Origin: a virus
DNA: 64,000 bases
Direction: 5' to 3' (one strand)
UHGV virus genome: UHGV-0038016
Shown: in pieces, positions 3,620 through 62,761 of the stretch
How positions within the stretch are numbered: the stretch's first letter is position 1
Layout of the letters: the number at the start of each line of letters is the position of its first letter
Translations under genes and position numbers: made by a program
The notes under the pieces: generated by a model
The model's database searches: none
What the model was told of the DNA's origin: nothing
What the model saw: only the letters and a program-made list of their open reading frames with translations

Positions 3620-3657
3620 TTATATACCTCCTTATAAATACTCTCTTTAATGTAAAA

Positions 3658-3690
3658 AAATAGGCTGTGCAATGACAGCCTATTGATTTA
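3658..3690. terminator. bidirectional intrinsic terminator between holin and lysin genes
   Basis: 8-bp perfect stem taggctgt/acagccta with loop gcaatg, flanked by an A-run on one side and a T-run on the other. Confidence 0.45.
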
Positions 3691-3696
3691 TTTTAT

Positions 3697-4026
3697 TTAT
3701 TTTTCTTGTTTAGTTTCATCTAGACCTTTTTCAAAGCCTTTTTTAGCAGCAGTATCAAATTGATTAGTTGCAATATAACCACCGATTAAACCACCAATTA
3801 TACCAACAATATAGTTAAGTCCTACAATTCCAAGAGCAGGAGCAATTGCCACTAGTACTGCTCCGATACCCCCTCCTAAAACTACTGCGATTAATTTAGT
3901 ATAATCGCTAGGAATAAAAGGTTTGATTAATTGAATAATATAAAATACGATTGGTGCCAAGATACCACCAAATGCTACCAAAGCAGCGAAAACATCTTGA
4001 ATTTGACTCATATCAATATTTGCCAT
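3697..4026 (-). CDS. holin (109 aa)
   Basis: Small protein with two or three hydrophobic helices rich in Gly/Ala/Ile (LVAFGGILAPIVFYIIQLI; LIAVVLGGGIGAVLVAIAPALGIVGLNYIVGIIGGLIGGYIA) and a charged C-terminus. Strong SD (attaaggagg). Sits directly upstream of the lysin. Confidence 0.65.
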   Translation of the reverse strand: MANIDMSQIQDVFAALVAFGGILAPIVFYIIQLIKPFIPSDYTKLIAVVLGGGIGAVLVAIAPALGIVGLNYIVGIIGGLIGGYIATNQFDTAAKKGFEKGLDETKQEK

Positions 4027-42787: not shown

Positions 42788-43516
42788 TTAGATTATTAAC
42801 GTAATATAAACTTGAGATTTATTCATTTTATCATTAGGATCTACTTGTCCATTGGCAGCTCGACGAGATACGTTCATCATAGGCAAAATAACTTGTGAGA
42901 ATTTTTCCCCATCAACCAAAATAACCTCATCAATAAGTCCTGAATGTCGACGTCCACCACGAGAACTTTCTTTAGCTGCTACTACGTCGAATCGACTACC
43001 ATTTTTAAATACAACTTGCACATAATCTTTACCATTAAGCTTCGTTTGTCCTGGTGCCCAATTGATTTCTTTTCTAATTGATGGTATCATATCACAGATT
43101 TCATTAATTTTTTCTGCAGCAATACCAGCAGCCTGTTCTTTACCACCAGAGGTAATAAATACTTTAATTCCTGGATATAAAATACATTTTTCCATCATTA
43201 GCATAACAGACAAAAAAGATTTAGAAAAGGCACGTGTAAAAGTACCAAAAAAGTATTTATGCCTCATAGCAGCACGTAAAAATAATCTTTGGTAAAAGAA
43301 AAAATTAAATTTGCTATCTGGACCCTTTATCATATCAATAAACATGTCTGGGTATTCTCTCCAAAAGGAGACGTATTCTGTAAAAGTAGGAATGCTTGCA
43401 CGCACCCTCTCTTCTGTTAAAAATACTTCTCGATTTTTTTTAGAGTTAATAAAATCTGATTTAATATCAATAAGAGTTGTACTTTTGTCTTCATGTTTTT
43501 TATTCTTCGCCATCAA
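42788..43516 (-). CDS. terL: terminase large subunit, N-terminal (ATPase) exon (242 aa ORF; real 5' splice site probably upstream of the in-frame stop)
   Basis: Deviant Walker A GTFTRAFSKS, Walker B HSGLIDEV, and motif-III-like VFITSGG. Overlaps the upstream gene by 17 nt, as terS-terL pairs often do. Confidence 0.65.
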   Translation of the reverse strand: MMAKNKKHEDKSTTLIDIKSDFINSKKNREVFLTEERVRASIPTFTEYVSFWREYPDMFIDMIKGPDSKFNFFFYQRLFLRAAMRHKYFFGTFTRAFSKSFLSVMLMMEKCILYPGIKVFITSGGKEQAAGIAAEKINEICDMIPSIRKEINWAPGQTKLNGKDYVQVVFKNGSRFDVVAAKESSRGGRRHSGLIDEVILVDGEKFSQVILPMMNVSRRAANGQVDPNDKMNKSQVYITLII

Positions 43517-49242: not shown

Positions 49243-50562
49243 GTCGAACTCCTCCTTTATTTACATTTACTCTGGTATCAATATAAAAACTGGGCAGAAC
49301 TATAGATAAATCTACCCCAACCGTGAGACGTCGTAGAAAAAAGACAGTCATGCGATTTTCAATTTTGAAGCTCTGATTAAGTGTTGTTGCCGCGGCTTCC
49401 CTGATTGACTTGTGAATATTTTCACAAATCCCAAAACCATCCCCACTAAAAGCTATTTTAGAAAAAATAACAGCCTGTAAGACCCGCATTAACCCAACCC
49501 CCATGGGCTAAAATAACAATCGTAAATCCAATTCCAATCTCAATTCCATTCCTGAAAACGCCCAAACCCTAATGATAACAAGCCTTTTACTACTGTTGTA
49601 AAAACTTATTGACCTAATTAAATAACGACCTGTGCATCCCTTACCACTAACCTCCTTATTAATTAAATAACACTCATCTGTGTTGCTGCCACCAAAAATA
49701 ACACTTGTTATTTAATAATATCAACTAATTTCTAACATTGAGTGGAATCCTTGTGAAATATTTCACAATCGTTTAAGGTTGTGATTGGTCTAGTCCATCT
49801 ATGTCTACTGCCACAATATATGAATATATGTTCACATGTACATCTCTTCAAGTATTTAAGTATGTTTAAATAACACTTGTTATTTTAAATATCGAACTAT
49901 AAAATTAAATAACCTTTGTTATTCATCGAGTTGCTGGGAACAAGCCGAACATATGTGCGCCAAGTATCTTTGCTTGACACCTTGCGTCAATGAGTTGTAA
50001 GCGCTTACATCTGTGACAATGCTCACAGACTAGCAGTAAGTACATATGAATATATGTACATCTGTTCATTCATACATATGAATAAATTATTATATGAATG
50101 ATTGTACATGTGTGAAATGTTTCACAATGTATTAGCTCATCACATCTCTGCCACCAAACATAACACTTGTTATAATAACTGATAAGTGTTATTTTATATA
50201 AGACTATTTATTCTAACACCTTAATAAAAGATAATAATAGCGCCCACAATACACTTCTTTGCTCTTCTCTTGGGTTTTATAATGCTTAATAGATAATTAT
50301 GCCAAATAATATGAAAAGCTCTTAAAACGTAAAATAAAGCGCTTTCAATTCATCTGTTTAAGTAAATCTTTTGTAAGCGCTTACATCTCTCGATAGTCTA
50401 TTAAAATAACATCTGTTATCGAATGCATATATACATACATAATGTATATAAAAATATTTTGTCTAATGTTAAAAACCATTTGACAATTAGGGTTTTATAT
50501 ATTATACTATTTATAGGGGTTAGATGAATAGCCCTAAAACCTATTGAAAAGAGGTATTCAAA
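49243..50562. promoter_or_regulatory. divergent control region between late (minus-strand) and early (plus-strand) modules; dense operator or iteron arrays; candidate origin of replication
   Basis: About 1.3 kb with no convincing ORF. Three TGTGA-N6-TCACA palindromes at 49411-49426, 49752-49767 and 50111-50126. Two identical TTGTAAGCGCTTACATCT palindromes at 49994-50011 and 50370-50387. Five AATAACA-NN-TGTTATT inverted repeats at 49697-49712, 49869-49884, 49908-49923, about 50160-50173 and 50405-50420. AT-rich CATATGAATATATG direct repeats at 49816-49845 and 50041-50110. Confidence 0.55.
50480..50508 (+). promoter_or_regulatory. sigma-A-type promoter (TTGACA-17-TATACT) for first early gene
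   Basis: TTGACA at 50480-50485, 17-nt spacer, TATACT at 50503-50508, then SD GAGG and ATG at 50563. Confidence 0.6.
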
Positions 50563-50799
50563 ATGAATAATGAAACTCTTGAAGCTATCGAGATTTTAGA
50601 ATTTGCTTTAGAATATGAACTAGAACGAAAGTACCTATCTAAATATAAGAAAGAGCTTACTAGCCCTTTAGTTGATAGCTATGCACTTAGTGAGTGGTTA
50701 CGGAACAAATATGATTTTAGTATGCAATTCCAAAATAGATTTGACATTCATCAAGTGTATAATGATTTTGTTAAATGGTTAAATGAAAATATTTATTGA
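50563..50799 (+). CDS. hypothetical early protein (78 aa)
   Basis: ORF with SD. Its TGA stop forms part of the next promoter's TTGACA. Confidence 0.55.
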   Translation: MNNETLEAIEILEFALEYELERKYLSKYKKELTSPLVDSYALSEWLRNKYDFSMQFQNRFDIHQVYNDFVKWLNENIY

Positions 50800-50825
50800 C
50801 ACCATCCCGAAACTATGGTATATTA
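50796..50825 (+). promoter_or_regulatory. promoter TTGACA-17-TATATT; the -35 box contains the stop codon of the upstream gene
   Basis: TTGACA at 50796-50801. The TGA at 50797-50799 is the stop of the 78-aa gene. -10 TATATT. Leader ATATAGAAAGGAATG. Confidence 0.55.
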
Positions 50826-50850
50826 GATATATAGAAAGGAATGATAATAT

Positions 50851-51210
50851 ATGATAGAGATTATTGAAATAGTTAATTTAAAAACTAATGAGAAATATCC
50901 TATACAAGTAATAACAAAGTCACAATATAATGAAGAAATGTTTTGGAATGAAAACAAAAAAAGTTTATATTTAAAAGGTTATACTAGCTGGCTACCCGAA
51001 AGATGTAATTATGTAGAGCTTCCTAAGAAGTTTTTTAGAAATAAACAGCGAGCAAGTGATACAAATAAATTTCATGATTTTCTTGGCTTTATAACTGAAA
51101 GAATTTGTTTGCTCAATAATACGAATGAAATTAAAATAGTATGGAAAATTGATGAAAAAACAGATTTTTGTGATTTTCTTGAAAAATACTTCTGGGAAAG
51201 AAAAAGATAG
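50851..51210 (+). CDS. hypothetical early protein (119 aa)
   Basis: ORF with AAAGGA SD 10 nt upstream. Followed by terminator/promoter unit 1. Confidence 0.55.
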   Translation: MIEIIEIVNLKTNEKYPIQVITKSQYNEEMFWNENKKSLYLKGYTSWLPERCNYVELPKKFFRNKQRASDTNKFHDFLGFITERICLLNNTNEIKIVWKIDEKTDFCDFLEKYFWERKR

Positions 51211-51249
51211 GTGTTAGGGGTTGACAACAACCTCTAACAATGTTATACT
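51211..51249 (+). promoter_or_regulatory. terminator/promoter unit 1: hairpin gtgttagggg-TTGACAACAA-cctctaaca with -35 in the loop, then TGtTATACT
   Basis: 9-bp stem with one mismatch. TTGACA at 51221-51226. 17-nt spacer. Extended -10 TGTTATACT at 51241-51249. Confidence 0.6.
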
Positions 51250-51281
51250 AATTATAGTTAAAAGAAAGGAATGATTTTAAA

Positions 51282-51767
51282 ATGAGAATAGTTATTGGTA
51301 GTATTTGTTTAGCTGTCTTAATAGGTCTTATGTTGTTTATGATTGGTTATAGTATTAGTGAGGCATGGTATAGAAGAAGAATATACAATCATGATCCAAA
51401 ATTAATGGATAAAAAAACAACAGTAACAACAATAAATAATCGAGTTACTGATGTAATAATGTTTCGAGCAAATCAAGAAGTTTCTAAAAAAATTGTAAGA
51501 AACGCTGATTCTGCTATTTCATGGCTTCAAGTTTCAATTTTAGATATATATTTAATAGATTTTGATACTAACGAACAAGTATGTTTTTCAGTTGTTGGCG
51601 GAAGAATAAACAATCATAACTATCCATTGACAGATAGCGAAATTTTGGCTCTTGAATTATCCAAAAATTTTAATGAAGAAAACTTGAATAAATTTTTAGA
51701 TAGTGAAGAAATGAAAGAAAAAATTGACGTATTAAAAAGAAGTATAATCGGAAAAGAATTAGTATAA
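51282..51767 (+). CDS. hypothetical membrane-anchored early protein (161 aa)
   Basis: N-terminal transmembrane helix IVIGSICLAVLIGLMLFMIGYSI. Leader AAAGAAAGGAATG. Confidence 0.55.
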   Translation: MRIVIGSICLAVLIGLMLFMIGYSISEAWYRRRIYNHDPKLMDKKTTVTTINNRVTDVIMFRANQEVSKKIVRNADSAISWLQVSILDIYLIDFDTNEQVCFSVVGGRINNHNYPLTDSEILALELSKNFNEENLNKFLDSEEMKEKIDVLKRSIIGKELV

Positions 51768-51801
51768 AGGACTTGCAAAAGTCCTTTTTTTGTGCTATAA
51801 T
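51767..51801 (+). promoter_or_regulatory. terminator/promoter unit 2: hairpin aaggact-TGCAAA-agtcctt plus T-run; TTGCAA -35 variant in loop, -10 TATAAT
   Basis: TTGCAA at 51773-51778. 17-nt spacer across the T-run. TATAAT at 51796-51801. Downstream lies a GTAAGCGCTTTC palindrome variant at 51829-51840 and no gene until a second promoter. Confidence 0.5.
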
Positions 51802-51878
51802 AATATTGTACCAAGAGAGGAAAGAAATGTAAGCGCTTTCATTGGAAAAATATTTTTAAACTTTTCGGCGCTTTTCTA

Positions 51879-51906
51879 TTGACTTATCCTATAACTGTGA
51901 TATAAT
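51879..51906 (+). promoter_or_regulatory. promoter TTGACT-16-TGaTATAAT (extended -10)
   Basis: TTGACT at 51879-51884. TGATATAAT at 51898-51906. Feeds the conserved leader ATAAAGAATAAGGAGTGAATAAAATG. Confidence 0.55.
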
Positions 51907-51935
51907 TATATTATAAAGAATAAGGAGTGAATAAA

Positions 51936-52262
51936 ATGCTAGAAAAAGAAATGAAAGAAAAAATTGACGAAATGAAAAAAGAAATTGAAAGAACTGAAAA
52001 ACGTTTACGTAATCATCATCTTTTAATTACAACGCTTTATAAAGATTTTGCTGAATATATAAAAGAGCAACTAGGAGGAGGTTTTTATGATGAAGATATA
52101 ACAGATGCTTCAAAAGATGCTTTAGATATTTTTTTCTCAACAAAAAAGACTTTAGATGCAAAAAACTATCGTATCTATAAAAATTCATTTGAATTAATAT
52201 ATCTTGAACAAGCCGAACAAATAAGGCAAGATGTGTTTGTTGGGAAAATTTTAAGAAGATAA
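51936..52262 (+). CDS. hypothetical early protein (108 aa; ATG start 9 nt inside the track ORF)
   Basis: The track ORF begins at a GTG that is itself part of the SD AAGGAGTG. The ATG at 51936 has the SD 8 nt upstream. The N-terminus is a charged coiled coil. Confidence 0.55.
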   Translation: MLEKEMKEKIDEMKKEIERTEKRLRNHHLLITTLYKDFAEYIKEQLGGGFYDEDITDASKDALDIFFSTKKTLDAKNYRIYKNSFELIYLEQAEQIRQDVFVGKILRR

Positions 52263-52265
52263 TCC

Positions 52266-52294
52266 TTGACAGGGTTATCTCTTTCTGTTATGAT
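52266..52294 (+). promoter_or_regulatory. promoter TTGACA-17-TGtTATGAT
   Basis: TTGACA at 52266-52271. Extended -10 at 52286-52294. Same conserved leader ATAAAGAATAAGGAGTGAATGAAATG. Confidence 0.55.
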
Positions 52295-52323
52295 ATTAAT
52301 ATAAAGAATAAGGAGTGAATGAA

Positions 52324-52740
52324 ATGCTTACAGTAGAACAAAAAGAATATATCAAGAAATTAGATGAAAAAACTGCGATAGTAGAATTAAATGAAGAGAT
52401 AGAGGGCTATAAATTTCTTATAATTGAAAATGTCCTTATTGCTAGAGATTGGCGTTCAAACTTATTTAAAATCTCACTAATGAATTTTATCGAAAAGAAA
52501 AAAATGTTTTCAAAAAAGAAGAAAGTAGAAATCATTTATTCTGAAAAATACCATTATACAGATAAGTGGGAAGAATCTGCAGAAAAAGAAAATTTATTAA
52601 TGTTATCAGAATATAAAAAAGGAAATATCAGATTGATTGACTTACCTTTTGTAAGAGATATGTTTTATTGTGTGGAAGATAGAGAGAAACAGAAAAAGAA
52701 AGAAATTGAACTAGAAAATTTATATAATGAATTTAAGTAA
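52324..52740 (+). CDS. hypothetical early protein (138 aa; ATG start inside the track ORF)
   Basis: SD AAGGAG 8 nt upstream of the ATG at 52324. The GTG at 52315 lies within the SD. Confidence 0.55.
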   Translation: MLTVEQKEYIKKLDEKTAIVELNEEIEGYKFLIIENVLIARDWRSNLFKISLMNFIEKKKMFSKKKKVEIIYSEKYHYTDKWEESAEKENLLMLSEYKKGNIRLIDLPFVRDMFYCVEDREKQKKKEIELENLYNEFK

Positions 52741-52775
52741 AAGGGGTTGACAACCCCTTTTTTACTTGCTATAAT
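52741..52775 (+). promoter_or_regulatory. terminator/promoter unit 3: aagggg-TTGACAA-cccctt hairpin plus T-run; -10 TATAAT
   Basis: GC stem of 6 bp, extendable to 9-10 bp with A/T pairs. TTGACA at 52747-52752 in the loop. Six T's after the stem. 17-nt spacer. TATAAT at 52770-52775. Confidence 0.65.
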
Positions 52776-52808
52776 AAATATATAAATAAAAGAAAGAAGG
52801 TTATAAGA

Positions 52809-53216
52809 ATGATTTATGTTATTATGTTTATTGCTATGTGTTGGTTAGATTGGAAGTTTGATACCTATGCAGGATTTAAATTTTTAGGAAGTTTTATATT
52901 GGGGGGCTTGATTTTCTTCGGTGGTCTTATGCTATGTAGTGATAAACAGACAGAAGTTAGCACCACACAAGAAACATTTATTAGTGGAAATTTTTCAGAA
53001 GAAAATCATAAAATGAATAGTAGCCAAACAGTTTTCGTTTATGCAACTGAAACAGGAACAAAAAGCATTGACACAAATCAAATCTTGAGTTTTAAAAAGA
53101 ATCAGAAAGAAAATAAAGTAATTATTACAGAATATGAGTATCCCAAAATAGCAAAGATTTTATTCTTTATGATTGGCGGCAGTACAACTTATGAAGTAGA
53201 ATTAAAAGAAAAATAA
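52809..53216 (+). CDS. hypothetical early membrane protein (135 aa)
   Basis: Two N-terminal hydrophobic helices (IYVIMFIAMCWL; FLGSFILGGLIFFGGLMLC). Confidence 0.55.
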   Translation: MIYVIMFIAMCWLDWKFDTYAGFKFLGSFILGGLIFFGGLMLCSDKQTEVSTTQETFISGNFSEENHKMNSSQTVFVYATETGTKSIDTNQILSFKKNQKENKVIITEYEYPKIAKILFFMIGGSTTYEVELKEK

Positions 53217-53221
53217 GAAAT

Positions 53222-53255
53222 AAGGGTTGACAAACCCTTATTTTTTTGTTATACT
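53222..53255 (+). promoter_or_regulatory. terminator/promoter unit 4: ataagggtt-GACA-aacccttat hairpin plus T7; TGtTATACT
   Basis: 9-bp stem with TTGACA (53227-53232) spanning stem and loop. T-run at 53241-53247. Extended -10 at 53247-53255. Followed by SD TAAGGAGGG and only a 30-codon ORF (53285-53377) that contains a GAAAGCGCTTACATCT palindrome. Confidence 0.6.
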
Positions 53256-53441
53256 GGAAATGTAAGGAGGGAGGGAACCATAAAATGAAAGCGCTTACAT
53301 CTTTTATACAAAATGAGAAAATTCTAATTAAAATTACAGTGTTTTATTATTGTCTTTCCTCTTGGTCTATGCTATAATAATTATAGAAAGTTAAGGAGGG
53401 AACAAAAAAAATAAAATAAAAAAATAAATTTAATAAAATGC

Positions 53442-53470
53442 TTGACAAAAGCTTTGAGGTTTGCTAATAT
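53442..53470 (+). promoter_or_regulatory. promoter TTGACA-17-TAATAT
   Basis: TTGACA at 53442-53447. TAATAT at 53465-53470. Leader TATAGAAAGGAACAATTAAAATG. Confidence 0.5.
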
Positions 53471-53495
53471 AGAATTATAGAAAGGAACAATTAAA

Positions 53496-53636
53496 ATGAA
53501 AAATAAATATTTAAGATTGAAATTGATTGCTAGAAAGAACCAAAGAGAAAAAGAAATTGACCGAAAAGAAAAAGCTGATAAAATGATAAAAGTGTTGACA
53601 GATGAATTAAGTCGTGTTATAATAGAATCAAGATAA
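53496..53636 (+). CDS. small basic helical protein (46 aa) containing an internal promoter
   Basis: ATG with a conserved leader. Under the 60-aa track cutoff. Contains TTGACA-17-TgtTATAAT at 53595-53623. Confidence 0.3.
   Translation: MKNKYLRLKLIARKNQREKEIDRKEKADKMIKVLTDELSRVIIESR
53595..53623 (+). promoter_or_regulatory. intragenic promoter TTGACA-17-TATAAT inside the 46-aa ORF, driving the next small gene
   Basis: TTGACA at 53595-53600. Spacer gatgaattaagtcgtgt. TATAAT at 53618-53623. Confidence 0.45.
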
Positions 53637-53644
53637 GGAAAGGA

Positions 53645-53812
53645 ATGAAAAAAATGAATAAATATATTTTACTTGTTAAATTCTTAGATGAAATTAGTTT
53701 GGATAGTGGTTATCCTAAAATTGAAGAAATTTTTGTTGAAGGTGATACTTATGAACAAGCCGTTCAAGACTTCAAAGAAGAATTTAAAAATAGAAAATTT
53801 GAAATTATTTAA
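53645..53812 (+). CDS. small hypothetical protein (55 aa)
   Basis: ATG with SD-like AAGGAAAGGAATG. Under the track cutoff. Confidence 0.35.
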   Translation: MKKMNKYILLVKFLDEISLDSGYPKIEEIFVEGDTYEQAVQDFKEEFKNRKFEII

Positions 53813-53815
53813 TAA

Positions 53816-53850
53816 AAAGTGTTGACAAAACATTTTAACAATGATATACT
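53816..53850 (+). promoter_or_regulatory. terminator/promoter unit 5 (weak hairpin aagtgtt-GACAA-aacattt with one G-U pair) with TTGACA then TGaTATACT
   Basis: TTGACA at 53822-53827. Extended -10 at 53842-53850. Weaker stem than the other units. Confidence 0.45.
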
Positions 53851-53881
53851 TAATATATAGAAAAGGAAAGGAAGTTTTAAA

Positions 53882-54085
53882 ATGAAATTATCTGAATTAG
53901 TATTATTAATTGTTTTTGTAGGAATTTTGGTCGCTGGAGGTATCTTACTACCATTCTATTTTACTTATCAAGCTATTTTATATACTGGATTTTTCTCTAT
54001 TCAAAGCTTGTTACTAATTGCTCTAACAACTATCACAAGTTATAGCGTTGTTACTTTCTTAAAAGAAAATTGGGAAAAGGCTTGA
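53882..54085 (+). CDS. small two-helix membrane protein (67 aa)
   Basis: LVLLIVFVGILVAGGILLPFYF and FFSIQSLLLIALTTITSYSVV. Its TGA stop lies inside the TTGACA of unit 6. Confidence 0.55.
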   Translation: MKLSELVLLIVFVGILVAGGILLPFYFTYQAILYTGFFSIQSLLLIALTTITSYSVVTFLKENWEKA

Positions 54086-54110
54086 CAAGCCTTTCTCAAT
54101 ACTCTATAAT
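54075..54110 (+). promoter_or_regulatory. terminator/promoter unit 6: aaaggc-TTGACAA-gccttt hairpin; -10 TATAAT; apparently orphan (no ORF before next promoter)
   Basis: TTGACA at 54082-54087 includes the stop codon at 54083-54085. TATAAT at 54105-54110. About 55 nt of transcript would precede the next promoter, with an AT hairpin aatttc-ttgtta-gaaatt. Confidence 0.5.
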
Positions 54111-54164
54111 AAGAGTATAAAGAAAACAACAAAAAATTTCTTGTTAGAAATTAGTATAAAACAC

Positions 54165-54193
54165 TTGACAAACAAACCAAAATGTTTTATACT
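54165..54193 (+). promoter_or_regulatory. promoter TTGACA-17-TATACT upstream of winged-helix-like gene copy 1
   Basis: TTGACA at 54165-54170. TATACT at 54188-54193. Confidence 0.5.
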
Positions 54194-54249
54194 AAGAATG
54201 TAATAAGAAATTATTACAAAAAAAATATTTTAAAAAGGTGGAATTTATC

Positions 54250-54663
54250 ATGGAAAAACAAATCACAAAAGCACAAGCATTGGAATTAGCGGTTAAAGTA
54301 GTAAGCAAAGCAATCGAGGATAAAACATTTTTAAATACTGACCTATTTGAAAAAGTTGATATTGAATTATTAAACAAATTGGAAGCTATGCACGCTCAAC
54401 AAGTGAAACAAGACAAGGCAAAACGTGGCAAAAAAGGCGTAAGCAAAACAGCAAAAGAAAAAGCTGAAAATATGGACAAAGTACGAAAAGCATTTCTTGA
54501 CTTAGAACCAGAAACAGCCTTAACATTACACGAAATTTCTGAACTAATTGGGCTTGTTGGCGCTACACCTCAAAAATTGACGGCAATCATGAAGCCTTTA
54601 GTCGATAATGAAGAATTTGAAAAAGTTGTAAAGGATAAAAAAGTAGCTTACAAATTGAAATAA
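54250..54663 (+). CDS. hypothetical DNA-binding-like protein (137 aa), module copy 1, gene 1
   Basis: SD AAAGGTGG, then ATG at 54250 (the track GTG at 54238 lies in the SD). Lys-rich central region and conserved C-terminus TPQKLTAIMKPLVDNEEFEKVVKDKKVAYKLK. Paralog of the gene at 59786. Confidence 0.55.
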   Translation: MEKQITKAQALELAVKVVSKAIEDKTFLNTDLFEKVDIELLNKLEAMHAQQVKQDKAKRGKKGVSKTAKEKAENMDKVRKAFLDLEPETALTLHEISELIGLVGATPQKLTAIMKPLVDNEEFEKVVKDKKVAYKLK

Positions 54664-54670
54664 GTTAGTA

Positions 54671-54706
54671 AAAGGGCTTGACAAGCTCAAGCCCTTTTGT
54701 TATACT
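54671..54706 (+). promoter_or_regulatory. terminator/promoter unit 7: 10-bp perfect stem aaagggcttg/caagcccttt, TTGACA in stem-loop, TTTTG, TGtTATACT
   Basis: Stem 54671-54680 / 54688-54697. TTGACA at 54678-54683. Extended -10 at 54698-54706. Confidence 0.65.
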
Positions 54707-54756
54707 TAAATAGTAGTTAAGGAACAAATAAATTTATTGAAAAGGTGGAAAATTGT

Positions 54757-55476
54757 ATGCAAGAAACATTTTTGATTTTAGATACTGAAACAACAAAAGA
54801 AGGCGAGGGAATGCCTTATCAATCAGTTTTCGATATTGGTTGGGCTATTTCAGACAAAAAGGGAAATATCTTAGTAGAACGTTCTTACATGGTAGAACAA
54901 TTCAAATTTCAAGCATTGAATAAAAAACGTGCTTTCCTGATTGATGAAAATGTAGTTGATGGAAAAATATATTTTACAAAATTACTTGAAAAAAGAATCA
55001 TTGTCAGTAAGTGGGCGAACATTATCGGGCAACTTAAAAAAGATTGTAAAAAATATAACGTTGCTTACATTGGCGCTTATAATTTAGGTTTTGACACTCG
55101 TGTAATTGCAAAAACTCATTTCTTTTTTTCGGGGAAGGATTTTGATTTCTTTGATAATTTCTTTTTGATTGATATTTATCCAGTTGCCGCCTATACTGTA
55201 TTAAATACGCCAGAATATAAAGAGTTCGCAAAAACTCACAACCTTTTGACAGAAAAAGGAAATTATCAAACAGGGGCAGAAGCAACTTACAAATTTTTGT
55301 TTAATGATACAGGTTACATTGAAGAGCATACTGCTTTACAGGATAGCATAGATGAAACAAAAATTTTACATTGTCTATTGAGTCAAGAAAAAGAAATTCC
55401 TATTCATGCCTATTCTATCAATCCTCAAGCGTGGCGAATTGTAAACGAAGAAAATTTAAATAAGAAAAAGAGTTGA
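54757..55476 (+). CDS. DEDDh-type 3'-5' exonuclease (DnaQ/RNase T-like), 239 aa; module copy 1, gene 2
   Basis: Exo I LILDTETT, Exo II YIGAYNLGFDTRV, Exo III HTALQDSIDE. ATG at 54757 after SD AAAGGTGG. Paralog of the gene at 60258. Confidence 0.7.
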   Translation: MQETFLILDTETTKEGEGMPYQSVFDIGWAISDKKGNILVERSYMVEQFKFQALNKKRAFLIDENVVDGKIYFTKLLEKRIIVSKWANIIGQLKKDCKKYNVAYIGAYNLGFDTRVIAKTHFFFSGKDFDFFDNFFLIDIYPVAAYTVLNTPEYKEFAKTHNLLTEKGNYQTGAEATYKFLFNDTGYIEEHTALQDSIDETKILHCLLSQEKEIPIHAYSINPQAWRIVNEENLNKKKS

Positions 55477-55501
55477 CACAACTCTTTTTCTTTGATATAA
55501 T
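55466..55501 (+). promoter_or_regulatory. terminator/promoter unit 8: aaaagagttg-ACA-caactctttt hairpin plus T-run, TTGACA containing stop codon, TGaTATAAT
   Basis: TTGACA at 55473-55478, with the TGA at 55474-55476 being the exonuclease stop. 10-bp stem. TATAAT at 55496-55501. Confidence 0.65.
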
Positions 55502-55527
55502 ATAACTATAGAAAGGAATGATACTAT

Positions 55528-55776
55528 ATGCTAATAACAAGAAGTTACAAAAGAAAAAGAAAAGTCCAAGAGAGGAAAGAGAAAATTATAATGGCGCTCG
55601 TTGGTGTGGCTGTCCTACTAATGATATTGTTTTTTATTCTAACGCCAATAATTGCTACAGTCTTTTCTTTTTATGTTGGTTTTGTTTTTACTTTTAAAAA
55701 TGTAATTGGTTTAGTTTTTCTTTATCTTTATAGCTGGGGAAGTTTATATCTTTTATACGATCATATTTTGGGATAG
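55528..55776 (+). CDS. small membrane protein (82 aa)
   Basis: Two hydrophobic helices (VAVLLMILFFILTPIIATVFSFYVGFVF; IGLVFLYLYSWGSLYLL). Confidence 0.5.
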   Translation: MLITRSYKRKRKVQERKEKIIMALVGVAVLLMILFFILTPIIATVFSFYVGFVFTFKNVIGLVFLYLYSWGSLYLLYDHILG

Positions 55777-55798
55777 CCTAAAAAGGCTATCTTTTTTT
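55772..55798 (+). terminator. strong intrinsic terminator (gatagcct-aaaa-aggctatc plus T7), without embedded promoter
   Basis: 8-bp perfect stem with a 7-T run. Followed by about 200 bp of non-coding DNA before the next cassette. Confidence 0.7.
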
Positions 55799-56003
55799 AT
55801 ATTGAAGGCTTGTGAAATAGTGAGCAAATTTGCCGTTTTCGGGCGGAAATTTTACCACAAAATTAGGTCTATGTCAAGAAAAAAATCAAAATTTTTTCTA
55901 AAAGTTTAATGAGAAAAAATATCCTAAAACTCATGTATTTATTATTTGATTTTTTTAGTTTTATTTGTTATAATTGTTATAGAAAGTTAAGGAGGGGACG
56001 AAA

Positions 56004-56252
56004 ATGGATAAAATGAAAAAAGATATTAATACCATTTTAGAAAATTCTACAGATGAAGAAATTAGCGATTTTTATGGTAAAGCTGATTGGGAAGGATTAG
56101 TCTATTATGTTTCTAATTGGGCAACGCCTTTTGATAAAAATCCTATTTATAAAAAATATATGCAAAAACCTTTTTTTGAAGCCTTAAAATTTTTAGAAAG
56201 TCTTTTTGTGGCTTGCGATAATTATCTTTGGGAAAAAAGAGAAAATAGTTGA
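56004..56252 (+). CDS. hypothetical early protein (82 aa)
   Basis: Leader TTATAGAAAGTTAAGGAGGGGACGAAAATG. Its TGA stop lies inside the next TTGACA. Confidence 0.55.
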   Translation: MDKMKKDINTILENSTDEEISDFYGKADWEGLVYYVSNWATPFDKNPIYKKYMQKPFFEALKFLESLFVACDNYLWEKRENS

Positions 56253-56277
56253 CACAAAAAAGTTCTCATGTTATACT
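56249..56277 (+). promoter_or_regulatory. promoter TTGACA-17-TGtTATACT (no hairpin), -35 contains upstream stop codon
   Basis: TTGACA at 56249-56254. Extended -10 at 56269-56277. Followed by the 35-bp leader ttatactatatatatagtaaaggaaaggaatg, which recurs exactly at 57847-57881. Confidence 0.55.
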
Positions 56278-56309
56278 ATATATATAGTAAAGGAAAGGAA
56301 TGGTGTTAT

Positions 56310-56717
56310 ATGCAAGAAACATTTTCTAACGGCGAAAAGATTACTTCTCATGATTGGAAATTAATTGATGAAATGGTTGAAAAATTAGAGCTAAATCTTG
56401 CTGAAGCTATCGAGTTAAGAGAGTTTGATAAGTTTGAAAGTGACAAGAAAACAGACTTTGAAAAAGAACAAAAAGAAATCAAGAAAGCTAAAAATGCAAA
56501 AGCAAAAATTACAGATGATGAAATTGACGACTTATTTAACAATGTAGTGAAAATTGCTTTCGGTGGCAAAGAGTATTTTCAAAATAAAGATTTTCATTTG
56601 TTAGTTGCTGACAAATACACAAACCGTCAGACCCCTAGCAGATTGAAAAAAATGAAAGAAAAGGGATATTTGGAAGATTTAGGTGGAAGTCCTAAAAAAT
56701 ATAAGGTAAAGGGTTGA
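56310..56717 (+). CDS. hypothetical early protein (135 aa; ATG start 42 nt inside the track ORF)
   Basis: The track ORF begins inside the promoter -10 region. The ATG at 56310 follows the leader AAAGGAAAGGAATGG. It shares the N-terminus MQETF with the exonuclease at 54757. Confidence 0.5.
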   Translation: MQETFSNGEKITSHDWKLIDEMVEKLELNLAEAIELREFDKFESDKKTDFEKEQKEIKKAKNAKAKITDDEIDDLFNNVVKIAFGGKEYFQNKDFHLLVADKYTNRQTPSRLKKMKEKGYLEDLGGSPKKYKVKG

Positions 56718-56742
56718 CAAACCCTTTACCACCTGTTATAAT
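56704..56742 (+). promoter_or_regulatory. terminator/promoter unit 9: 11-bp perfect stem ggtaaagggtt-GACA-aaccctttacc, TTGACA containing stop codon, TGtTATAAT
   Basis: TTGACA at 56714-56719 (TGA stop at 56715-56717). TATAAT at 56737-56742. No T-run after the stem. Confidence 0.6.
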
Positions 56743-56771
56743 AATAGTATAAAGAATAAGGAGTGAACGAA

Positions 56772-57143
56772 ATGCAAATTTTTAAAACATTTGAAGAAAA
56801 GAAAGTAAAACTAATTGGAGTGGACGAGCTTTGTGTTTATACTGGGAAATTTAACTTATTAACTAATAATATGATTGTTAAATTATATTATAAAGGTTCT
56901 TTAGTTGCAAAAAGAAAACGGAAAATTCAAAATGAATATGATTATAAACTAGTCGAATTTTTTGAGGATAATGAAGCTGATGAATTAACAGAAGTATATA
57001 ATTTTTTCGGGTCGAATAATTTTATTAGCGACAGTGACAAGCACAGAATCCACAGTATTGACGTGACAGATTTTTCTGCAAAAGAAAAAATTGAAAAAAT
57101 TAATGTAAAGGAAAAAATTACTAAAAAGTTTTTTGAGGGTTGA
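56772..57143 (+). CDS. hypothetical early protein (123 aa; ATG start inside the track ORF)
   Basis: Third copy of the leader ATAAAGAATAAGGAGTGAACGAAATG. The GTG at 56763 lies within the SD. Confidence 0.55.
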   Translation: MQIFKTFEEKKVKLIGVDELCVYTGKFNLLTNNMIVKLYYKGSLVAKRKRKIQNEYDYKLVEFFEDNEADELTEVYNFFGSNNFISDSDKHRIHSIDVTDFSAKEKIEKINVKEKITKKFFEG

Positions 57144-57175
57144 GGGTTGACTTTTCAACCCTTATAATATATAAT
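57143..57175 (+). promoter_or_regulatory. terminator/promoter unit 10: agggttga-CTTT-tcaaccct hairpin with TTGACT, -10 TATAAT
   Basis: TTGACT at 57147-57152. 17-nt spacer. TATAAT at 57170-57175. Confidence 0.55.
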
Positions 57176-57201
57176 AAGAATATAGAAAGGAGTTGTAACA
57201 A

Positions 57202-57504
57202 ATGCTTTTATTTACTAAAAAAGTTATTATCACACAACACGCCAAAGAGCGCTACTTAGAAAGAGTAGCGAAAGAACAAATGAATAATAGACAAGTTCGT
57301 TCGGCAATTCTTAACGATTTTCAAATTAAAAACGTAAGAAAGAAAACGCCAAAAAATGAAGAGAATGAATTTAAATTGTGGGTTTTCGGTTCTCGCTTAT
57401 ATGTCTGTAATGAAACAGATAAAACTATAGTAGTAAAAACTGTTATTCAAATGTTACCAGAGGACGAAAAAAGAATTATCAAAGAAATTGAGGAAAAGGG
57501 TTGA
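57202..57504 (+). CDS. hypothetical early protein (100 aa)
   Basis: Leader ATATAGAAAGGAGTTGTAACAAATG. Its TGA stop lies in the TTGACA of unit 11. Confidence 0.55.
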   Translation: MLLFTKKVIITQHAKERYLERVAKEQMNNRQVRSAILNDFQIKNVRKKTPKNEENEFKLWVFGSRLYVCNETDKTIVVKTVIQMLPEDEKRIIKEIEEKG

Positions 57505-57529
57505 CAAACAGCCCTTTCCTTGATATAAT
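57495..57529 (+). promoter_or_regulatory. terminator/promoter unit 11: aaaggg-TTGACAAACAG-cccttt hairpin, -35 contains stop codon, TGaTATAAT
   Basis: TTGACA at 57501-57506 (stop at 57502-57504). TATAAT at 57524-57529. Confidence 0.55.
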
Positions 57530-57561
57530 AATTATAGAAAGTTAAGAAAGGAATGAATTAA

Positions 57562-57819
57562 ATGCAAATGAATGTTTTTGTAAACAATGGTAACTATTAT
57601 ATTATTGAGAGTTTCCCAGAAGTAAAAATTTTTCTCCACGATCAAATTTTAAATGGTAAGCTGGCTTATGAATTTAGAAAAGGAGAAAATAGAAGTGATT
57701 TCTATTATTTTAGATTTAAGAATTTATCTATGTCAAAAAGTTTGATTGGTAAATTAGTAGCCAAAATAAATGGAAAAATTTTATTAAAACGATTAGAAAA
57801 ATTTAATCAAGAAAATTAA
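57562..57819 (+). CDS. hypothetical early protein (85 aa)
   Basis: Leader TTATAGAAAGTTAAGAAAGGAATGAATTAAATG. Confidence 0.55.
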   Translation: MQMNVFVNNGNYYIIESFPEVKIFLHDQILNGKLAYEFRKGENRSDFYYFRFKNLSMSKSLIGKLVAKINGKILLKRLEKFNQEN

Positions 57820-57857
57820 GTAAAGGGGTTGACTCCCCTTTACTTCCATGTTATACT
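57820..57857 (+). promoter_or_regulatory. terminator/promoter unit 12: gtaaagggg-TTGACT-cccctttac hairpin (loop is exactly the -35), TGtTATACT
   Basis: 9-bp perfect stem. TTGACT at 57829-57834. Extended -10 at 57849-57857. Followed by an exact copy of the 35-bp leader. Confidence 0.65.
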
Positions 57858-57889
57858 ATATATATAGTAAAGGAAAGGAATGAATTTAA

Positions 57890-58060
57890 ATGATTATTTT
57901 AAGTAATAAAAAAATGTATGAAAGATTAGAAAGACTTTGGGAAACAAGGGGAAACGAAAAAGAAAGCTTTGAGGATTTCCTTTTGGATTTATGTAACGAA
58001 TATATTATTAACACTGCAGAGCTGAAAAAATTTAGTGATTATCATAAAAACAAAAGATGA
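57890..58060 (+). CDS. small hypothetical protein (56 aa), last gene of the cassette array
   Basis: ATG after the conserved leader. Under the track cutoff. Followed by a strong terminator. Confidence 0.35.
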   Translation: MIILSNKKMYERLERLWETRGNEKESFEDFLLDLCNEYIINTAELKKFSDYHKNKR

Positions 58061-58086
58061 GATTTTTCTCATCTTTTTTTAATTTT
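58053..58086 (+). terminator. strong intrinsic terminator (aagatgaga-tttt-tctcatctt plus T7)
   Basis: 9-bp stem overlapping the stop codon. Long T-run. Confidence 0.7.
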
Positions 58087-58870
58087 GCTTGTGAATTTTT
58101 TCACAAAAAAATACGTGTTATTTTAAAAGCGAAGTTTGTGAAATGTATAAAATAAAATAACAACCCAAAAGGAAGAAGATAAAATAACATTGTGGGGGCG
58201 GGGTTCCCAAAACCTTGATGTATCAAGCTTTCATTTTCATTTTCATAAATTGGAAATTGATTTTCAAAAATAAAATAACAGAATCCTGAAACTAAAGTTT
58301 GTGAAATGAATAAAATAACAAATAGAGGACGTTATTTTTCGGCCGCTCGCTGGCGAGCGCCATTTTACTGTGTTATTTTATCCCTGTCAAGTTTTTGGCT
58401 TGTTATTTAATTGTTTTTTAATGTTATTTTAATATCCCAAAAGTCCATGCATGTGATTTTTTTCACAACCCAGAAAGCCTATTATATCAAGCTTTCACAG
58501 CCTTTTCATTCCAAGAGAGCAAGAGAATGTGAATGTGCGCACAAGCCAGAGTGTGTTATTTTTCTGCTCTTGGGTGTTATTTTATGTTTGTGAATTATTT
58601 CACATGTATTTTTTTGCCTGTTATTGAAACAACAATGAAAATTTCTGAAAATCTATTGAAAGCTTGATCTGACGCAGTTTGTAAGCGCTTACAGGTTTAT
58701 AAAATAACATGTGTCCAAAGAAAAGCTGTTATTTAATTATAAAATAACGCCTGGTGAATTGTGTGTAAATTAGAAACAGTTCTCATTAAACTTTAATAAT
58801 TTTAATGTATAAAATGCTTTACTTTTTATCATTTATCCCTTATACTAAGTATATAAGATAAAGGGAGGAC
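58087..58870. repeat. non-coding repeat island: TGTGA-N6-TCACA operators, AAATAACA iterons, GTAAGCGCTTAC palindrome, ATCAAGCTTTCA inverted repeats, GC hairpin
   Basis: Full TGTGA-N6-TCACA sites at 58090-58105, 58452-58467 and 58589-58604. Half sites TTTGTGAAATG at about 58137 and 58299. At least 12 copies of (A)AATAACA/TGTTATT(T). GTAAGCGCTTAC at 58681-58692. ATCAAGCTTTCA at about 58225 and 58486, with its inverse at about 58652. GGACGTTATTTTTCGGCCGCTCGCTGGCGAGCGCC hairpin at about 58320-58355. Confidence 0.55.
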
Positions 58871-58877
58871 GAAAGAA

Positions 58878-60222: not shown

Positions 60223-60257
60223 AAAAAATTTTTATTAAAAAGGTGGAAACGGTAAGC

Positions 60258-61016
60258 ATGAAAATTGACAAAAGAAAAAAATATATTTTAGTATTAGATG
60301 TAGAAACAGCTGGGGATGTTGAAAAAAATCCATTATGTTACGATGTAGGTTTTGTTGTAGCTGATAAAAAAGGGAATATCTATGAAGAACATTCGTTCGC
60401 AATTTCAGAAATTTTTGATGATGATGCTTTAATGCGTAGCGCTTACTACTATACAAAATTGCCTTTGTATCGTGAGAAAATTTCTCAGGGGATTATGAAA
60501 GTGAAGCCGTTTAGATATGTTAGAAGAGTTATTCTTAACATTATAGAAAAATACAATATCAAAACCGTAGCAGCCTATAACGCTTATTTTGATTTTGTCA
60601 AAGCTTTAAATAATACATGGCAAGAATTGACAAACTATCCATTTTTCTTCCCTTATGAAGTAGGGAAAAATTTAGAAATCAATTGCATTTGGCATATGGC
60701 TTGCCAGACAATTTTTTCGCAGAAAAGTTTTCCAAAATGGGCTTTTGAGAATGGTTACTACTCAAAAGCCGGCAATCTGAAAACAAATGCGGAAGTCGCT
60801 TATAACTGGATGATGAAAACAACCGACTTTGTGGAAGAACATACAGGGCTGGCAGATGTATATATAGAAACGGCAATAATGGCATGGTGTTATAAACAAC
60901 ACAAAAAAATGAATCGAAAAATAAATAGAATGTGTTGGCGTATCCCTACAAAAATTCATTCTGAAAAAATTTCTGAAATTAACATGAAAGAATTTGAAGC
61001 AAGTTTTCAAAATTAA
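60258..61016 (+). CDS. DEDDh-type 3'-5' exonuclease (252 aa); module copy 2, gene 2
   Basis: Exo I LVLDVETAG, Exo II AAYNAYFDFV, Exo III HTGLADVYIE. SD AAAGGTGG and ATG at 60258. Paralog of the gene at 54757. Confidence 0.7.
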   Translation: MKIDKRKKYILVLDVETAGDVEKNPLCYDVGFVVADKKGNIYEEHSFAISEIFDDDALMRSAYYYTKLPLYREKISQGIMKVKPFRYVRRVILNIIEKYNIKTVAAYNAYFDFVKALNNTWQELTNYPFFFPYEVGKNLEINCIWHMACQTIFSQKSFPKWAFENGYYSKAGNLKTNAEVAYNWMMKTTDFVEEHTGLADVYIETAIMAWCYKQHKKMNRKINRMCWRIPTKIHSEKISEINMKEFEASFQN

Positions 61017-61056: not shown

Positions 61057-61561
61057 TCTATGAAAATGAAAATATTTTTGAAAGTTTTCATGAAATTTTC
61101 TGAAAATCAAATTTTTCTCAAAATTGTAAAATTAGAGATTTCTAATAATTTTTTTGTTATTTTTTAATAATAGTTTGTGAAAAATTAAAATTCTCTTGTT
61201 ATTTAAAAAACGTAAAATAACAGAAAAAACTTAATTTATAAAATAACACCGTCCCAAAACGTTGATATGACAGGCTTTCCAGCTTCCTGAATTAATATTC
61301 AATAACATGAATAAAAAACCAAAATCCCAAAACTGTTATTTTAATTTGTGAAAATTAGAATTCTCTCATAAGGGGACGTTATTTTTTGGCCGGTCGTGCA
61401 CGGCCGGAACCCAGCCTAATGTCGACCACCACGCTAGATTTTTTCCCCGTTAAAGGCTTGCCTCGTAAAGCCAGGATTTTTTCCTAAAACTCAGCACCCC
61501 TTGATTTTTTCTGTATAAAATGTTATAATAAAACAGAGAGGATAAATTATCCTGCCTAATA
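61057..61561. repeat. non-coding repeat island paralogous to 58.1-58.4 kb (AAATAACA iterons, TTTGTGAAA half sites, GGACGTTATTTTTTGGCCGG GC hairpin)
   Basis: TGTGA half sites at 61176-61180 and 61347-61351. At least 7 AATAACA/TGTTATT copies. GGGGACGTTATTTTTTGGCCGGTCGTGCACGGCCGG at about 61372-61407, which parallels GAGGACGTTATTTTTCGGCCGCTCGCTGGCGAGCGCC at 58.3 kb. The segment AAAATAACAccgtCCCAAAACgTTGATaTgaCAgGCTTTC parallels 58185-58235. A TTGATT-17-TATAAT promoter-like element lies at about 61503-61531. Confidence 0.5.
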
Positions 61562-61591: not shown

Positions 61592-62761
61592 TTATTCTTC
61601 TTCATCAGTAGAGATTAAGCTGTTTAAGATATAACGAGTTATACTACCGCTTGATCTGTCAAAGACAATTTTGTTTTGTCCAAAAGGTTCAGTTGAAATA
61701 ATATTTCCAATAGTTAGATCATCAATTGCTTCTTCATAGGTTGCAGGTTGAAGGAATCCCTCCATGCGACGAGGGTTAGCAAGTGTATGTGTGCCTTGAA
61801 TAGATACTAAATTATAAGCTCCTGTAGTACCACTATAGTTACTTACCATTCCATACTCAAATGGACTCATCTTTGTAGGGGATTGATATTTAGCTAGATT
61901 ATCACGTAGGTATTCATGTCCCATATATTTCTGAGAAGTATATACATATTGCATCTCTACAATGTGTTTTTTAACGTCTTTCTCAAATTTTTCAAGTGTT
62001 TCTTGGATAAAGTCTGGATCAAAACCTAGGTCATTTAACACAGGTGAGCCTGCCCAACCGTTTTCCTCGATAGAAGTAAATAGTTGTGACCATGACCAGA
62101 TTGCATATAAGCCAATCTGATTCTTAATTTCAAAGTAAGGGTCAATCTTCTCTAACGATTTCTTAACAGAGAATGGAGCTCCTGCACGTACTTCTTCAGA
62201 TAGATAGAAAGGACTAATAATATCTCCAATCTTTTTGTCTGTTAAATTATTATACGTGTATTCATAAGCGCTTGAAATGGCTCTAGTTTCTTTAGGCATT
62301 AGATAATTTAATAATCCTTTTTGAATAATTGCGTATGGATCTACTTTCGTTTCTGCTTCAAGATTATTAGTATAAGGTAATAAATCATTGACTACTCCAC
62401 GCAGACGCATTCCAACTACTTTAGCTTCTTCATGAGTATAAACTTGAGGATATAAGATTAAATTAGAGATATTTTCAGATTGACTAATATTGATGTCATG
62501 TCCATCAACATCTTTTTCAGCCATAATATAGAAGCCAGCAGATTCACCATATCGTTCTACTCCAGTGATAAATCCTTCTGCATTAGTTCGATAAGTAGAA
62601 AAACCTTCTTGACCTTCTGCTACTACCATATTACGAGCCAATTTATTAAGAATAAACCCTAATGTGAAACCTTCTCCAGATTTTTTTCTTTGAAGTTGTG
62701 CTCTTGGAGTACCTTCTATAATTTCAATAACATCTTCTTGAGCTAGTCGTGATAATTTCAT
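61592..62761 (-). CDS. hypothetical protein (389 aa)
   Basis: ORF with SD AAAGGGGA. No motif recognised with confidence. A promoter-like TTGAAA-17-TATAAT lies at about 62882-62912 on the minus strand, and the 5' UTR contains GC hairpins. Confidence 0.5.
   Translation of the reverse strand: MKLSRLAQEDVIEIIEGTPRAQLQRKKSGEGFTLGFILNKLARNMVVAEGQEGFSTYRTNAEGFITGVERYGESAGFYIMAEKDVDGHDINISQSENISNLILYPQVYTHEEAKVVGMRLRGVVNDLLPYTNNLEAETKVDPYAIIQKGLLNYLMPKETRAISSAYEYTYNNLTDKKIGDIISPFYLSEEVRAGAPFSVKKSLEKIDPYFEIKNQIGLYAIWSWSQLFTSIEENGWAGSPVLNDLGFDPDFIQETLEKFEKDVKKHIVEMQYVYTSQKYMGHEYLRDNLAKYQSPTKMSPFEYGMVSNYSGTTGAYNLVSIQGTHTLANPRRMEGFLQPATYEEAIDDLTIGNIISTEPFGQNKIVFDRSSGSITRYILNSLISTDEEE

Follow-up and report, generated by a model that had tools for sequence, protein, structure and literature searches.

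The stretch analyzed here, referred to throughout as the window, comprises 64,000 nucleotides of virus genome UHGV-0038016, and the subject of this account is a family of five palindromes in its non-coding DNA, between positions 49996 and 58693. Seven cultured Enterococcus phages of 134-142 kb (H1, VRE9_1 to VRE9_4, EF1, and EF5), whose hosts are E. faecium and E. faecalis, share 93-97% identity with the window, which is part of a virulent E. faecium/faecalis phage of about 140 kb; one further close relative is an IMG/VR contig. Strand bias switches near position 50000. To the left, genes for proteins of 66 and 620 aa and for a 339-aa sigma-like protein (phrog_5767 match, E 4e-102) lie on the minus strand, followed by PhoH, terminase, and structural genes. 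To the right, from 50480 to about 58060, there are about 20 small plus-strand genes, each preceded by a consensus sigma-A promoter and a terminator. A Pfam search with 20 early and flanking proteins scored only a HAD hydrolase together with weak hits, leaving the small early genes without a domain. Scanning counted 119 promoter-like sites in 15 kb (71 expected) and 21 terminator-like sites (5.5 expected). This layout of genes, promoters, and terminators is that of an early, host-takeover module, and two large non-coding hubs, at 49243-50562 and 58061-58877, flank it on both sides.

Full palindromes of 14-16 bp with the form TGWAAGCGCTTWCA start at 49996, 50372, 51828, 53286, and 58680 in the window, where chance would be expected to provide about none; all five are in non-coding DNA. 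S1 (an exact match; 14-mer 49996-50009, 16-mer span 49995-50010) and S2 (50372-50385, span 50371-50386) both read TGTAAGCGCTTACA as the 14-mer and TTGTAAGCGCTTACAT as the 16-mer. S3 (51828-51841, span 51827-51842) reads TGTAAGCGCTTTCA within ATGTAAGCGCTTTCAT, S4 (53286-53299, span 53285-53300) reads TGAAAGCGCTTACA within ATGAAAGCGCTTACAT, and S5, in the right non-coding hub (58680-58693, span 58679-58694), again has the 14-mer TGTAAGCGCTTACA, here within TTGTAAGCGCTTACAG. The original prediction had drawn attention to a repeated 18-mer and several variants in this region as possible sites of a second regulator. Two exact copies of the 18-mer, TTGTAAGCGCTTACATCT, are present, at 49995-50012 and 50371-50388, one base higher than had been reported. 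Both GTAAGCGCTTAC at 58681-58692 and GTAAGCGCTTTC at 51829-51840 had been placed correctly, while the variant GAAAGCGCTTACATCT is present at 53287-53302 rather than from 53288, and AAAGCGCTTT lies at 50336-50345, not 50338-50348, and is a half-site only (ATAAAGCGCTTTCA). The expected motif enrichment is borne out: with up to three mismatches allowed, the 18-mer has seven matches in the window against 0.08 expected, and the 8-bp core AAGCGCTT has seven copies against 0.74 expected, including one at 62266-62273 that had been missed and that lies inside an open reading frame (ORF) without the outer arms. Exact matches to TGWAANCGNTNWCA number five, all within 49996-58693, and one mismatch raises the count to 17 (4.4 expected). 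AGCGCT is the recognition site of Eco47III/AfeI, and RGCGCY that of HaeII; outside the motif there are eight copies of AGCGCT against about 5.4 expected, which is not an enrichment, and a restriction-site bias was rejected.

The sequence family to which these palindromes correspond is cre, the operator of CcpA, a host global regulator of the LacI family that binds with HPr-Ser46-P when sugar is plentiful. For E. faecalis the cre consensi TG(T/A)NANCGNTN(T/A)CA and WTGWAARCGYWWWCW have been reported, and binding of CcpA/P-Ser-HPr to cre has been demonstrated in that species (PMC3198936); the B. subtilis consensus is WTGNNARCGNWWWCAW, and crystallized cre operators, such as ackA2 TTGTAAGCGTTATCAA, resemble TGTAAGCGCTTACA (PMC3074128). 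All five phage sites match TGWAANCGNTNWCA and WTGWAARCGYWWWCW without a mismatch, and four of the five match the B. subtilis form, S5 agreeing at 15 of its 16 positions and missing only the last W. In sequence, TGTAAGCGCTTACA is an idealized cre. A position weight matrix (PWM) was derived from 25 cre sites of E. faecalis V583 (Table 1 of PMC8262876), many of which were themselves consensus-predicted. The phage sites scored 19.9-20.9 bits (S1, 19.9-20.8) against 7.4-19.3 bits for the host sites in the matrix, with the next match in the window at 13.6 bits and the best in 30 shuffles at 17.9. By this matrix score the phage sites appear nearer to an ideal cre than the host's own. A weak cre half-site, AATAAAGCGCTTTCAA at 50333-50348, 38 bp upstream of S2, includes the variant at 50336-50345 discussed above; it has the AAGCGCTT core, scores 10-12 bits, and is kept in relatives.

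The center is GCGC in all window sites, and hinge-helix contact by the LacI family, in contrast to binding by winged-helix dimers, is recognized by a central CpG that is invariant and has R/Y flanks. A tblastn search of the whole of H1 and the window with approximate probe sequences of CcpA and LacI found no LacI-family gene, the best E values (0.3-1.2) falling in unrelated frames. Since a cre consensus is thus accompanied by no detectable LacI-family gene of the phage, the cognate regulator is most likely a host protein rather than a phage one. That protein could be a different LacI/GalR-family regulator, a local sugar repressor, instead of CcpA: the exact 16-mer is also present in Proteobacteria that lack CcpA and in other non-Firmicutes, many phyla being represented among the genome-contig matches listed, and this class of sequence is family-wide. 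The fit to the E. faecalis cre matrix nevertheless exceeds that of real host cre sites, variation in relatives tracks cre degeneracy, and local repressors are scarce and respond to single sugars, an odd signal for a phage to follow; a regulator of this kind is accordingly given little credence.

The whole of H1 (138,084 bp), assembled from four pieces, has exactly five matches, all at 91006-100396, within 9.4 kb of the early region; there is no site in positions 1-49000 of the window, none in its 46 kb of structural and late genes, and none in the other ~128 kb of H1. This distribution contradicts an earlier suggestion that the palindromes are late-promoter elements, which could in principle be read by the sigma-like factor that the phage encodes (phrog_5767). 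No site stands upstream of structural or late genes in either sequence, all of them lie among consensus sigma-A promoters of early type, and a perfect dyad is unlike promoter architecture, leaving that proposal with a negligible probability.

S1 to S4 are kept in all eight relatives examined (the seven cultured phages and the IMG/VR contig), as is S5, with one disrupting mismatch in EF5. Otherwise the 14-mers differ only by an exchange of T and A at positions 3 and 12, where cre has a degenerate W, and S1 and S2 are invariant among seven genomes compared. Two further observations tell more than this conservation does. At S4 mosaic recombination has made the upstream sequence different from phage to phage, yet the cassette GGGAGGGAACCATAAA-ATG-cre is retained and always has a promoter ahead of it. 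VRE9_3 and VRE9_4 have a sixth copy of the ATG-cre cassette in an extra intergenic spacer. The ATG at S4 starts a 30-codon ORF (MKALTSFIQNEK..., 53285-53377) behind the strong ribosome-binding site AGGAGGGAGGGA, whereas the corresponding ATG at S3 (51827-51832) runs straight into TAA, forming a start-stop pair, and the extra site in VRE9_4 would encode MKALS-stop. A search of cultured phages for intermediate relatives, distant mode included, returned the same seven records only, and a locus search with the sigma-like protein returned close relatives only, plus one short contig without a hub.

Each of the five sites follows a predicted promoter, at positions that range from +20 to about +190. 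In the left hub, S1 and S2 flank a back-to-back promoter pair. The leftward promoter (50116 to 50089, minus strand; TTCACA-16-TATAAT, predicted to be of sigma-A type), whose -35 is inside one of the Rex-type boxes described below, reads through S1, at +73 to +86, toward the 66-aa, 620-aa, sigma-like, PhoH, and terminase genes. The rightward promoter (50148-50176, plus strand) has an extended -10 that overlaps a palindrome of the AATAACA family; S2 is at about +189 of this promoter and 94 bp upstream of the -35 of the promoter at 50480-50508. S3 occupies +20 to +33 of a plus-strand promoter at 51773-51801, whose -35 is in the loop of the preceding terminator hairpin (repeat family D10), and lies 37 bp upstream of the -35 of the promoter at 51879-51906. 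S4 occupies +24 to +37 of the plus-strand promoter at 53227-53255, which has its -35 TTGACA in a terminator loop (family D2). The starts of S3 and S4 are 26 and 30 nt after the respective -10, and a further site start is 79 nt after a -10; behind the promoters of both S3 and S4 a second promoter was noted that is not covered by a site. S5 is at +20 to +33 of a weak promoter (58624-58652), and the HAD-hydrolase gene follows 185 bp downstream of the site. Characterized repressing cre sites in E. faecalis are at +94 and +207 (PMC3198936). Relative to the predicted promoters, all five phage sites would be in the position of a transcription roadblock.

A second type of candidate host operator shares the hubs. 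The Rex operator consensus of Gram-positive bacteria is TTGTGAA-W4-TTCACAA, or TTGTGAANNNNTTCACAA (PMC2883068). With up to two mismatches the window has six matches against 0.81 expected, three of them perfect and all inside the two hubs: at 49410-49427, 49751-49768, and 50110-50127, co-located with S1 and S2, and at 58089-58106, 58451-58468, and 58588-58605, co-located with S5. Six of the seven matches in the whole of H1 are in the same two hubs. The assignment to Rex is tentative and not unique, as the boxes also fit the Crp/Fnr-type TGTGA-N6-TCACA. The presence of two independent consensus host-operator families in one place strengthens the view that host regulators are used by the phage.

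Scanning IMG/VR with the 14-mer yielded mostly single matches, probably due to chance, together with contigs that have dense clusters. C161 (IMGVR_UViG_3300001336_000161, represented by L089 and L069) has 33 cre-type sites in 15 kb, 31 of them intergenic; L023 has 19, L099 has 12 in tandem, L066 has six in tandem at 24 bp, L095 has five, four of which are in tandem at 27 bp, and L058 and L024 are listed with six. Some of these arrays consist of tandem perfect ATGTAAGCGCTTACAT at a spacing of 24-29 bp. C161, L095, and L099 share terminase (34-37% amino acid identity), portal, and neighboring genes with the window phage in the same gene order, and other shared proteins link L023 and L066 to these three. 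The five contigs belong, at a distance, to the broad lineage of large siphoviruses of Firmicutes that includes the window phage. No cultured phage matched the uncultured contigs that bear arrays. Where the center was left free, NCGN was kept in 70 of 74 outer-arm matches (C161, L023, L058, and L099), and the other free positions follow cre, with R at 7, Y at 10, T at 12, and A and T on the flanks. Sites in C161 are found upstream of perfect consensus promoters, ten of them ending 12 bp and three ending 22 bp before the -35, and those in L058 end 2 bp before it; the 10-bp steps suggest dependence on the helix face, as would fit an activator. The first 50 kb of Lactococcus phage 949, whose terminase is of the same broad family, contain no match to cre, indicating that the motif is neither universal in the family nor a by-product of AT-rich DNA.

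Such arrays raise the possibility that CcpA is bound chiefly as a decoy, with super-consensus sites on the replicating genome soaking up CcpA/HPr-Ser-P and lifting the repression of host sugar uptake and catabolism, and with control of phage promoters secondary. The phage sites outscore every host site in the matrix, relatives have up to 33 sites in 15 kb, and in L066, L095, and L099 sets of 5-12 perfect sites stand in tandem, spaced by 24-29 bp, and follow no promoter logic. The window phage, however, has five full sites only, and placement just past promoters here, at a fixed 12 or 22 bp from the -35 in C161 and at 2 bp in L058, points to promoter-linked action; titration as the main role is rather improbable.

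The same arrays look iteron-like, and S1, S2, and S5 are in two large, repeat-rich non-coding hubs, features that might be expected of sites for replication, nicking, or packaging. In the high-GC contig L122 (IMGVR_UViG_3300020577_000844, 56% GC), four cre-type palindromes within 330 bp (3475-3801) are flanked by two perfect DnaA boxes TTATCCACA and GA-repeat tracts; this region may be an origin, and it suggests that LacI-type operators also occur in phages of non-Firmicute hosts. Against such a function in the window, the sites are dispersed over 8.7 kb (family D12), S3, S4, and the sixth site of VRE9_3 and VRE9_4 are in short spacers between promoter and gene, no DnaA box was found in the two hubs, and no initiator gene was recognized nearby. 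The nicking or initiation enzyme that the original prediction had offered gained nothing in its favor, and a role of this kind is considered very improbable.

The explanation that we favor, and regard as probable, is that the five palindromes are cre, operators of host CcpA placed in the control regions of the early module, and that bound CcpA would block elongation. The earlier idea of dyad-symmetric binding sites for a second regulator holds to this extent: the palindromes are non-coding and of operator type, there is a correlation of their positions with predicted promoters and predicted transcript starts, they are kept in eight relatives and in deeply diverged ones, and neither outcome that was to refute the idea was seen; what had gone unrecognized is that their sequence is the host CcpA consensus. 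What the analysis shows is sequence identity with cre, confinement of the sites to the early region across the genome, conservation, and placement relative to predicted promoters; binding by CcpA and the direction and size of its effect are what we infer. In an energy-rich cell, CcpA with HPr-Ser46-P on the sites would form a transcription roadblock, as their location downstream of predicted sigma-A promoters implies. The promoters damped would be, for S3 and S4, two upstream, 'extra' ones within the early cluster; for S1 and S2, the two arms of the left hub's divergent pair, of which the leftward leads to the sigma-factor, PhoH, and terminase operon; and for S5, the weak promoter of the right hub. 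When HPr-Ser46-P drops, through host starvation or the metabolic drain of infection, CcpA would leave and the transcripts be released. The Rex-type operators in the same hubs could add a redox (NADH/NAD+) input. Variants of the scheme would allow for a decoy or sponge role, given the relatives' arrays and super-consensus affinity, or for activation, given the geometry in C161 and L058. Extended to the lineage as a whole (the Enterococcus group and the uncultured relatives with 6-33 sites per contig), the early programme and the sigma/terminase gate would be wired to sensors of host metabolism through better-than-host operators for CcpA (carbon) and, in the Enterococcus group, Rex (redox), acting as roadblocks here and as phased activator sites in relatives, with tandem arrays forming a CcpA sponge that reprograms host carbon metabolism. 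Lytic development in phages of Gram-positive bacteria would then be subject to a general metabolic checkpoint that has so far not been described; this broader proposal is tentative and more doubtful than not.

Several points weigh against the roadblock interpretation. The close relatives are 93-97% identical overall, so that conservation among them says little. The 16-mer, on its distribution, marks a LacI/GalR-type operator generally and does not single out CcpA. Because the promoters are predicted, not mapped, and promoter-like sites are dense, the downstream position is only weakly significant and the correlation modest. Each promoter under cre control is then followed by a second one that cre does not cover, in which case a roadblock would merely modulate. 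In related clades the motif is upstream of promoters at activator-like distances, and repression may therefore not be general. Finally, the palindromes could be operators of a small (~80 aa) phage-encoded winged-helix protein whose specificity coincides with or copies host cre. Genes of this family are found in several copies between the cre arrays of C161 (715-957, 2252-2500, and 3208-3465), L023 (6212-6457 and 7791-8045), and L066, and beside the sites in L058 (10044-10277) and L024, and the motif-carrying phages are mutually related, making a shared phage protein possible. A probable homolog, H1_4 (3169-3411 of the H1 record, outside the window), has sub-threshold winged-helix Pfam matches (LexA_DNA_bind, HTH_45, and TrmB) and was joined to the family by hhalign with 88% probability, albeit on a shallow alignment (Neff 2.2) and with an E of only 0.029 in an HMM search. 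The window encodes no homolog of the family, the H1 gene is about 47 kb from the sites, the central CpG with its R/Y flanks is a LacI-family signature and not one of winged-helix dimers, and a winged-helix binder would leave the Rex-type host operators in the same hubs unexplained. This is the main rival to CcpA, though an unlikely one.

Other features were observed in the hubs and the early cluster. Palindromes of the family AATAACANNTGTTATT, probably the 'first family' of the original prediction, are at 49697-49712, 49869-49884, 49908-49923, 50159-50174, and 50405-50420, one copy overlapping the -10 of the promoter at 50148-50176; their ACAnnTGT core recalls operators of the BlaI/CopY type. 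The right hub has about eleven AAATAACA/TGTTATTT half-sites of this family spread over 58100-58600. Four bp from S1 is the palindrome CTGTGACAATGCTCACAG (50014-50031), the center of which varies in relatives (CAATGC, CAACGT, CAACAT); its counterpart in H1, TGACAACGTTCACA, is a second weak match to cre. The interval from S1 to the leftward promoter contains a degenerate 16-bp tandem repeat, GTACATATGAATATAT x 4.4, at 50040-50109, and TATGAATATATGTACAT-like units recur at 49819-49850. A LexA/Cheo-like box with one mismatch (CGAACATATGTGCG, 49946-49959) and the CodY-like boxes AAATTTCTGAAAATC (58639-58653) and AATTTTCTGAAAATC (61094-61108) are not statistically significant on their own. Sites marking the boundaries of a terminal repeat are unlikely, as the hubs share short motifs only and no extended homology; the second places matched by BLAST in relatives were accounted for by paralogous genes, and a search for data on genome termini returned none.

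Across 50480-57900 (for example, at 52740-52798, 53218-53255, and 56705-56742), loops of terminator hairpins hold the TTGACA -35 of the next promoter, and this overlap of terminator and promoter recurs throughout the early cluster (repeat families D1-D3 and D10). Paralogous early proteins of 243 and 257 aa (phrog 20187; labeled 'exodeoxyribonuclease' in H1) are encoded at 54745-55476 and 60243-61016, and a 33%-identical homolog (10819-11457) directly adjoins the cre cluster of L058, an otherwise unrelated-looking contig. The terminase large subunit, a single gene in H1 (82748-84526), is seemingly divided in the window between two ORFs, 42788-43516 and 40577-41551, with ORF 41834-42721 lying between them; insertion of an intron or of a homing endonuclease is suggested.

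The usual view of lytic phages is that they follow a set programme under regulators of their own, and to our knowledge sites for host global regulators have been documented in very few virulent phages, notably the Spo0A boxes of phi29. If CcpA, and perhaps Rex, does bind, the sugar and redox state of the host would bear on the transcription of early phage genes and on the passage into the late operon, both of which would depend on it. The promoter-phased dense arrays of uncultured relatives suggest that the phenomenon is widespread and so far undescribed. In phage therapy against vancomycin-resistant E. faecium, efficacy could then depend on the carbon source at the site of infection. A cre function could also help to explain the ccpA mutations that arose in E. 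faecalis under pressure from other phages and were left unexplained (PMC8924694). The five sites provide a short list of targets for mutation.

In full-text literature searches no publication was found that connects phage promoters with CcpA or cre; the operator class is well known, and its location in a virulent phage is new to the searchable literature. Phage operators of the CI/Cro type are likewise repeated dyads around a back-to-back promoter pair, but the cre-type sites avoid -35 and -10 elements, also occur deep in the early cluster, and have no cognate LacI-type gene that could be found. The hub boxes fit the Rex operators of Gram-positive bacteria, three of them perfectly, and are a motif separate from the cre sites. 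The closest precedent is provided by the Spo0A-binding '0A boxes' of the virulent Bacillus phages phi29 and Nf, where a lytic phage likewise has sites for a host global regulator and its development tracks host physiology (PMC2731898). The regulator and process there are Spo0A and sporulation rather than CcpA and carbon, host and phage family differ, and binding and its effects were, for phi29, established by experiment, whereas the present cre sites are recognized from their sequence and position. Close counterparts of the element itself are the chromosomal cre of E. faecalis and B. subtilis (cre1-3 of the cit operon, cre2 of ackA, and EF2863), which have the same 14-16 bp dyad with a central CpG, that of EF2863 (TTGTAAGCGCTAACA) being one base different from the phage site, and among which those acting as roadblocks have positions downstream of promoters that match those of the phage sites. 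Compared with these chromosomal operators, the phage sites are in a virulent phage and not beside genes for carbon catabolism, are nearer to the ideal palindrome, and are clustered in an early module, co-located with Rex-type boxes.

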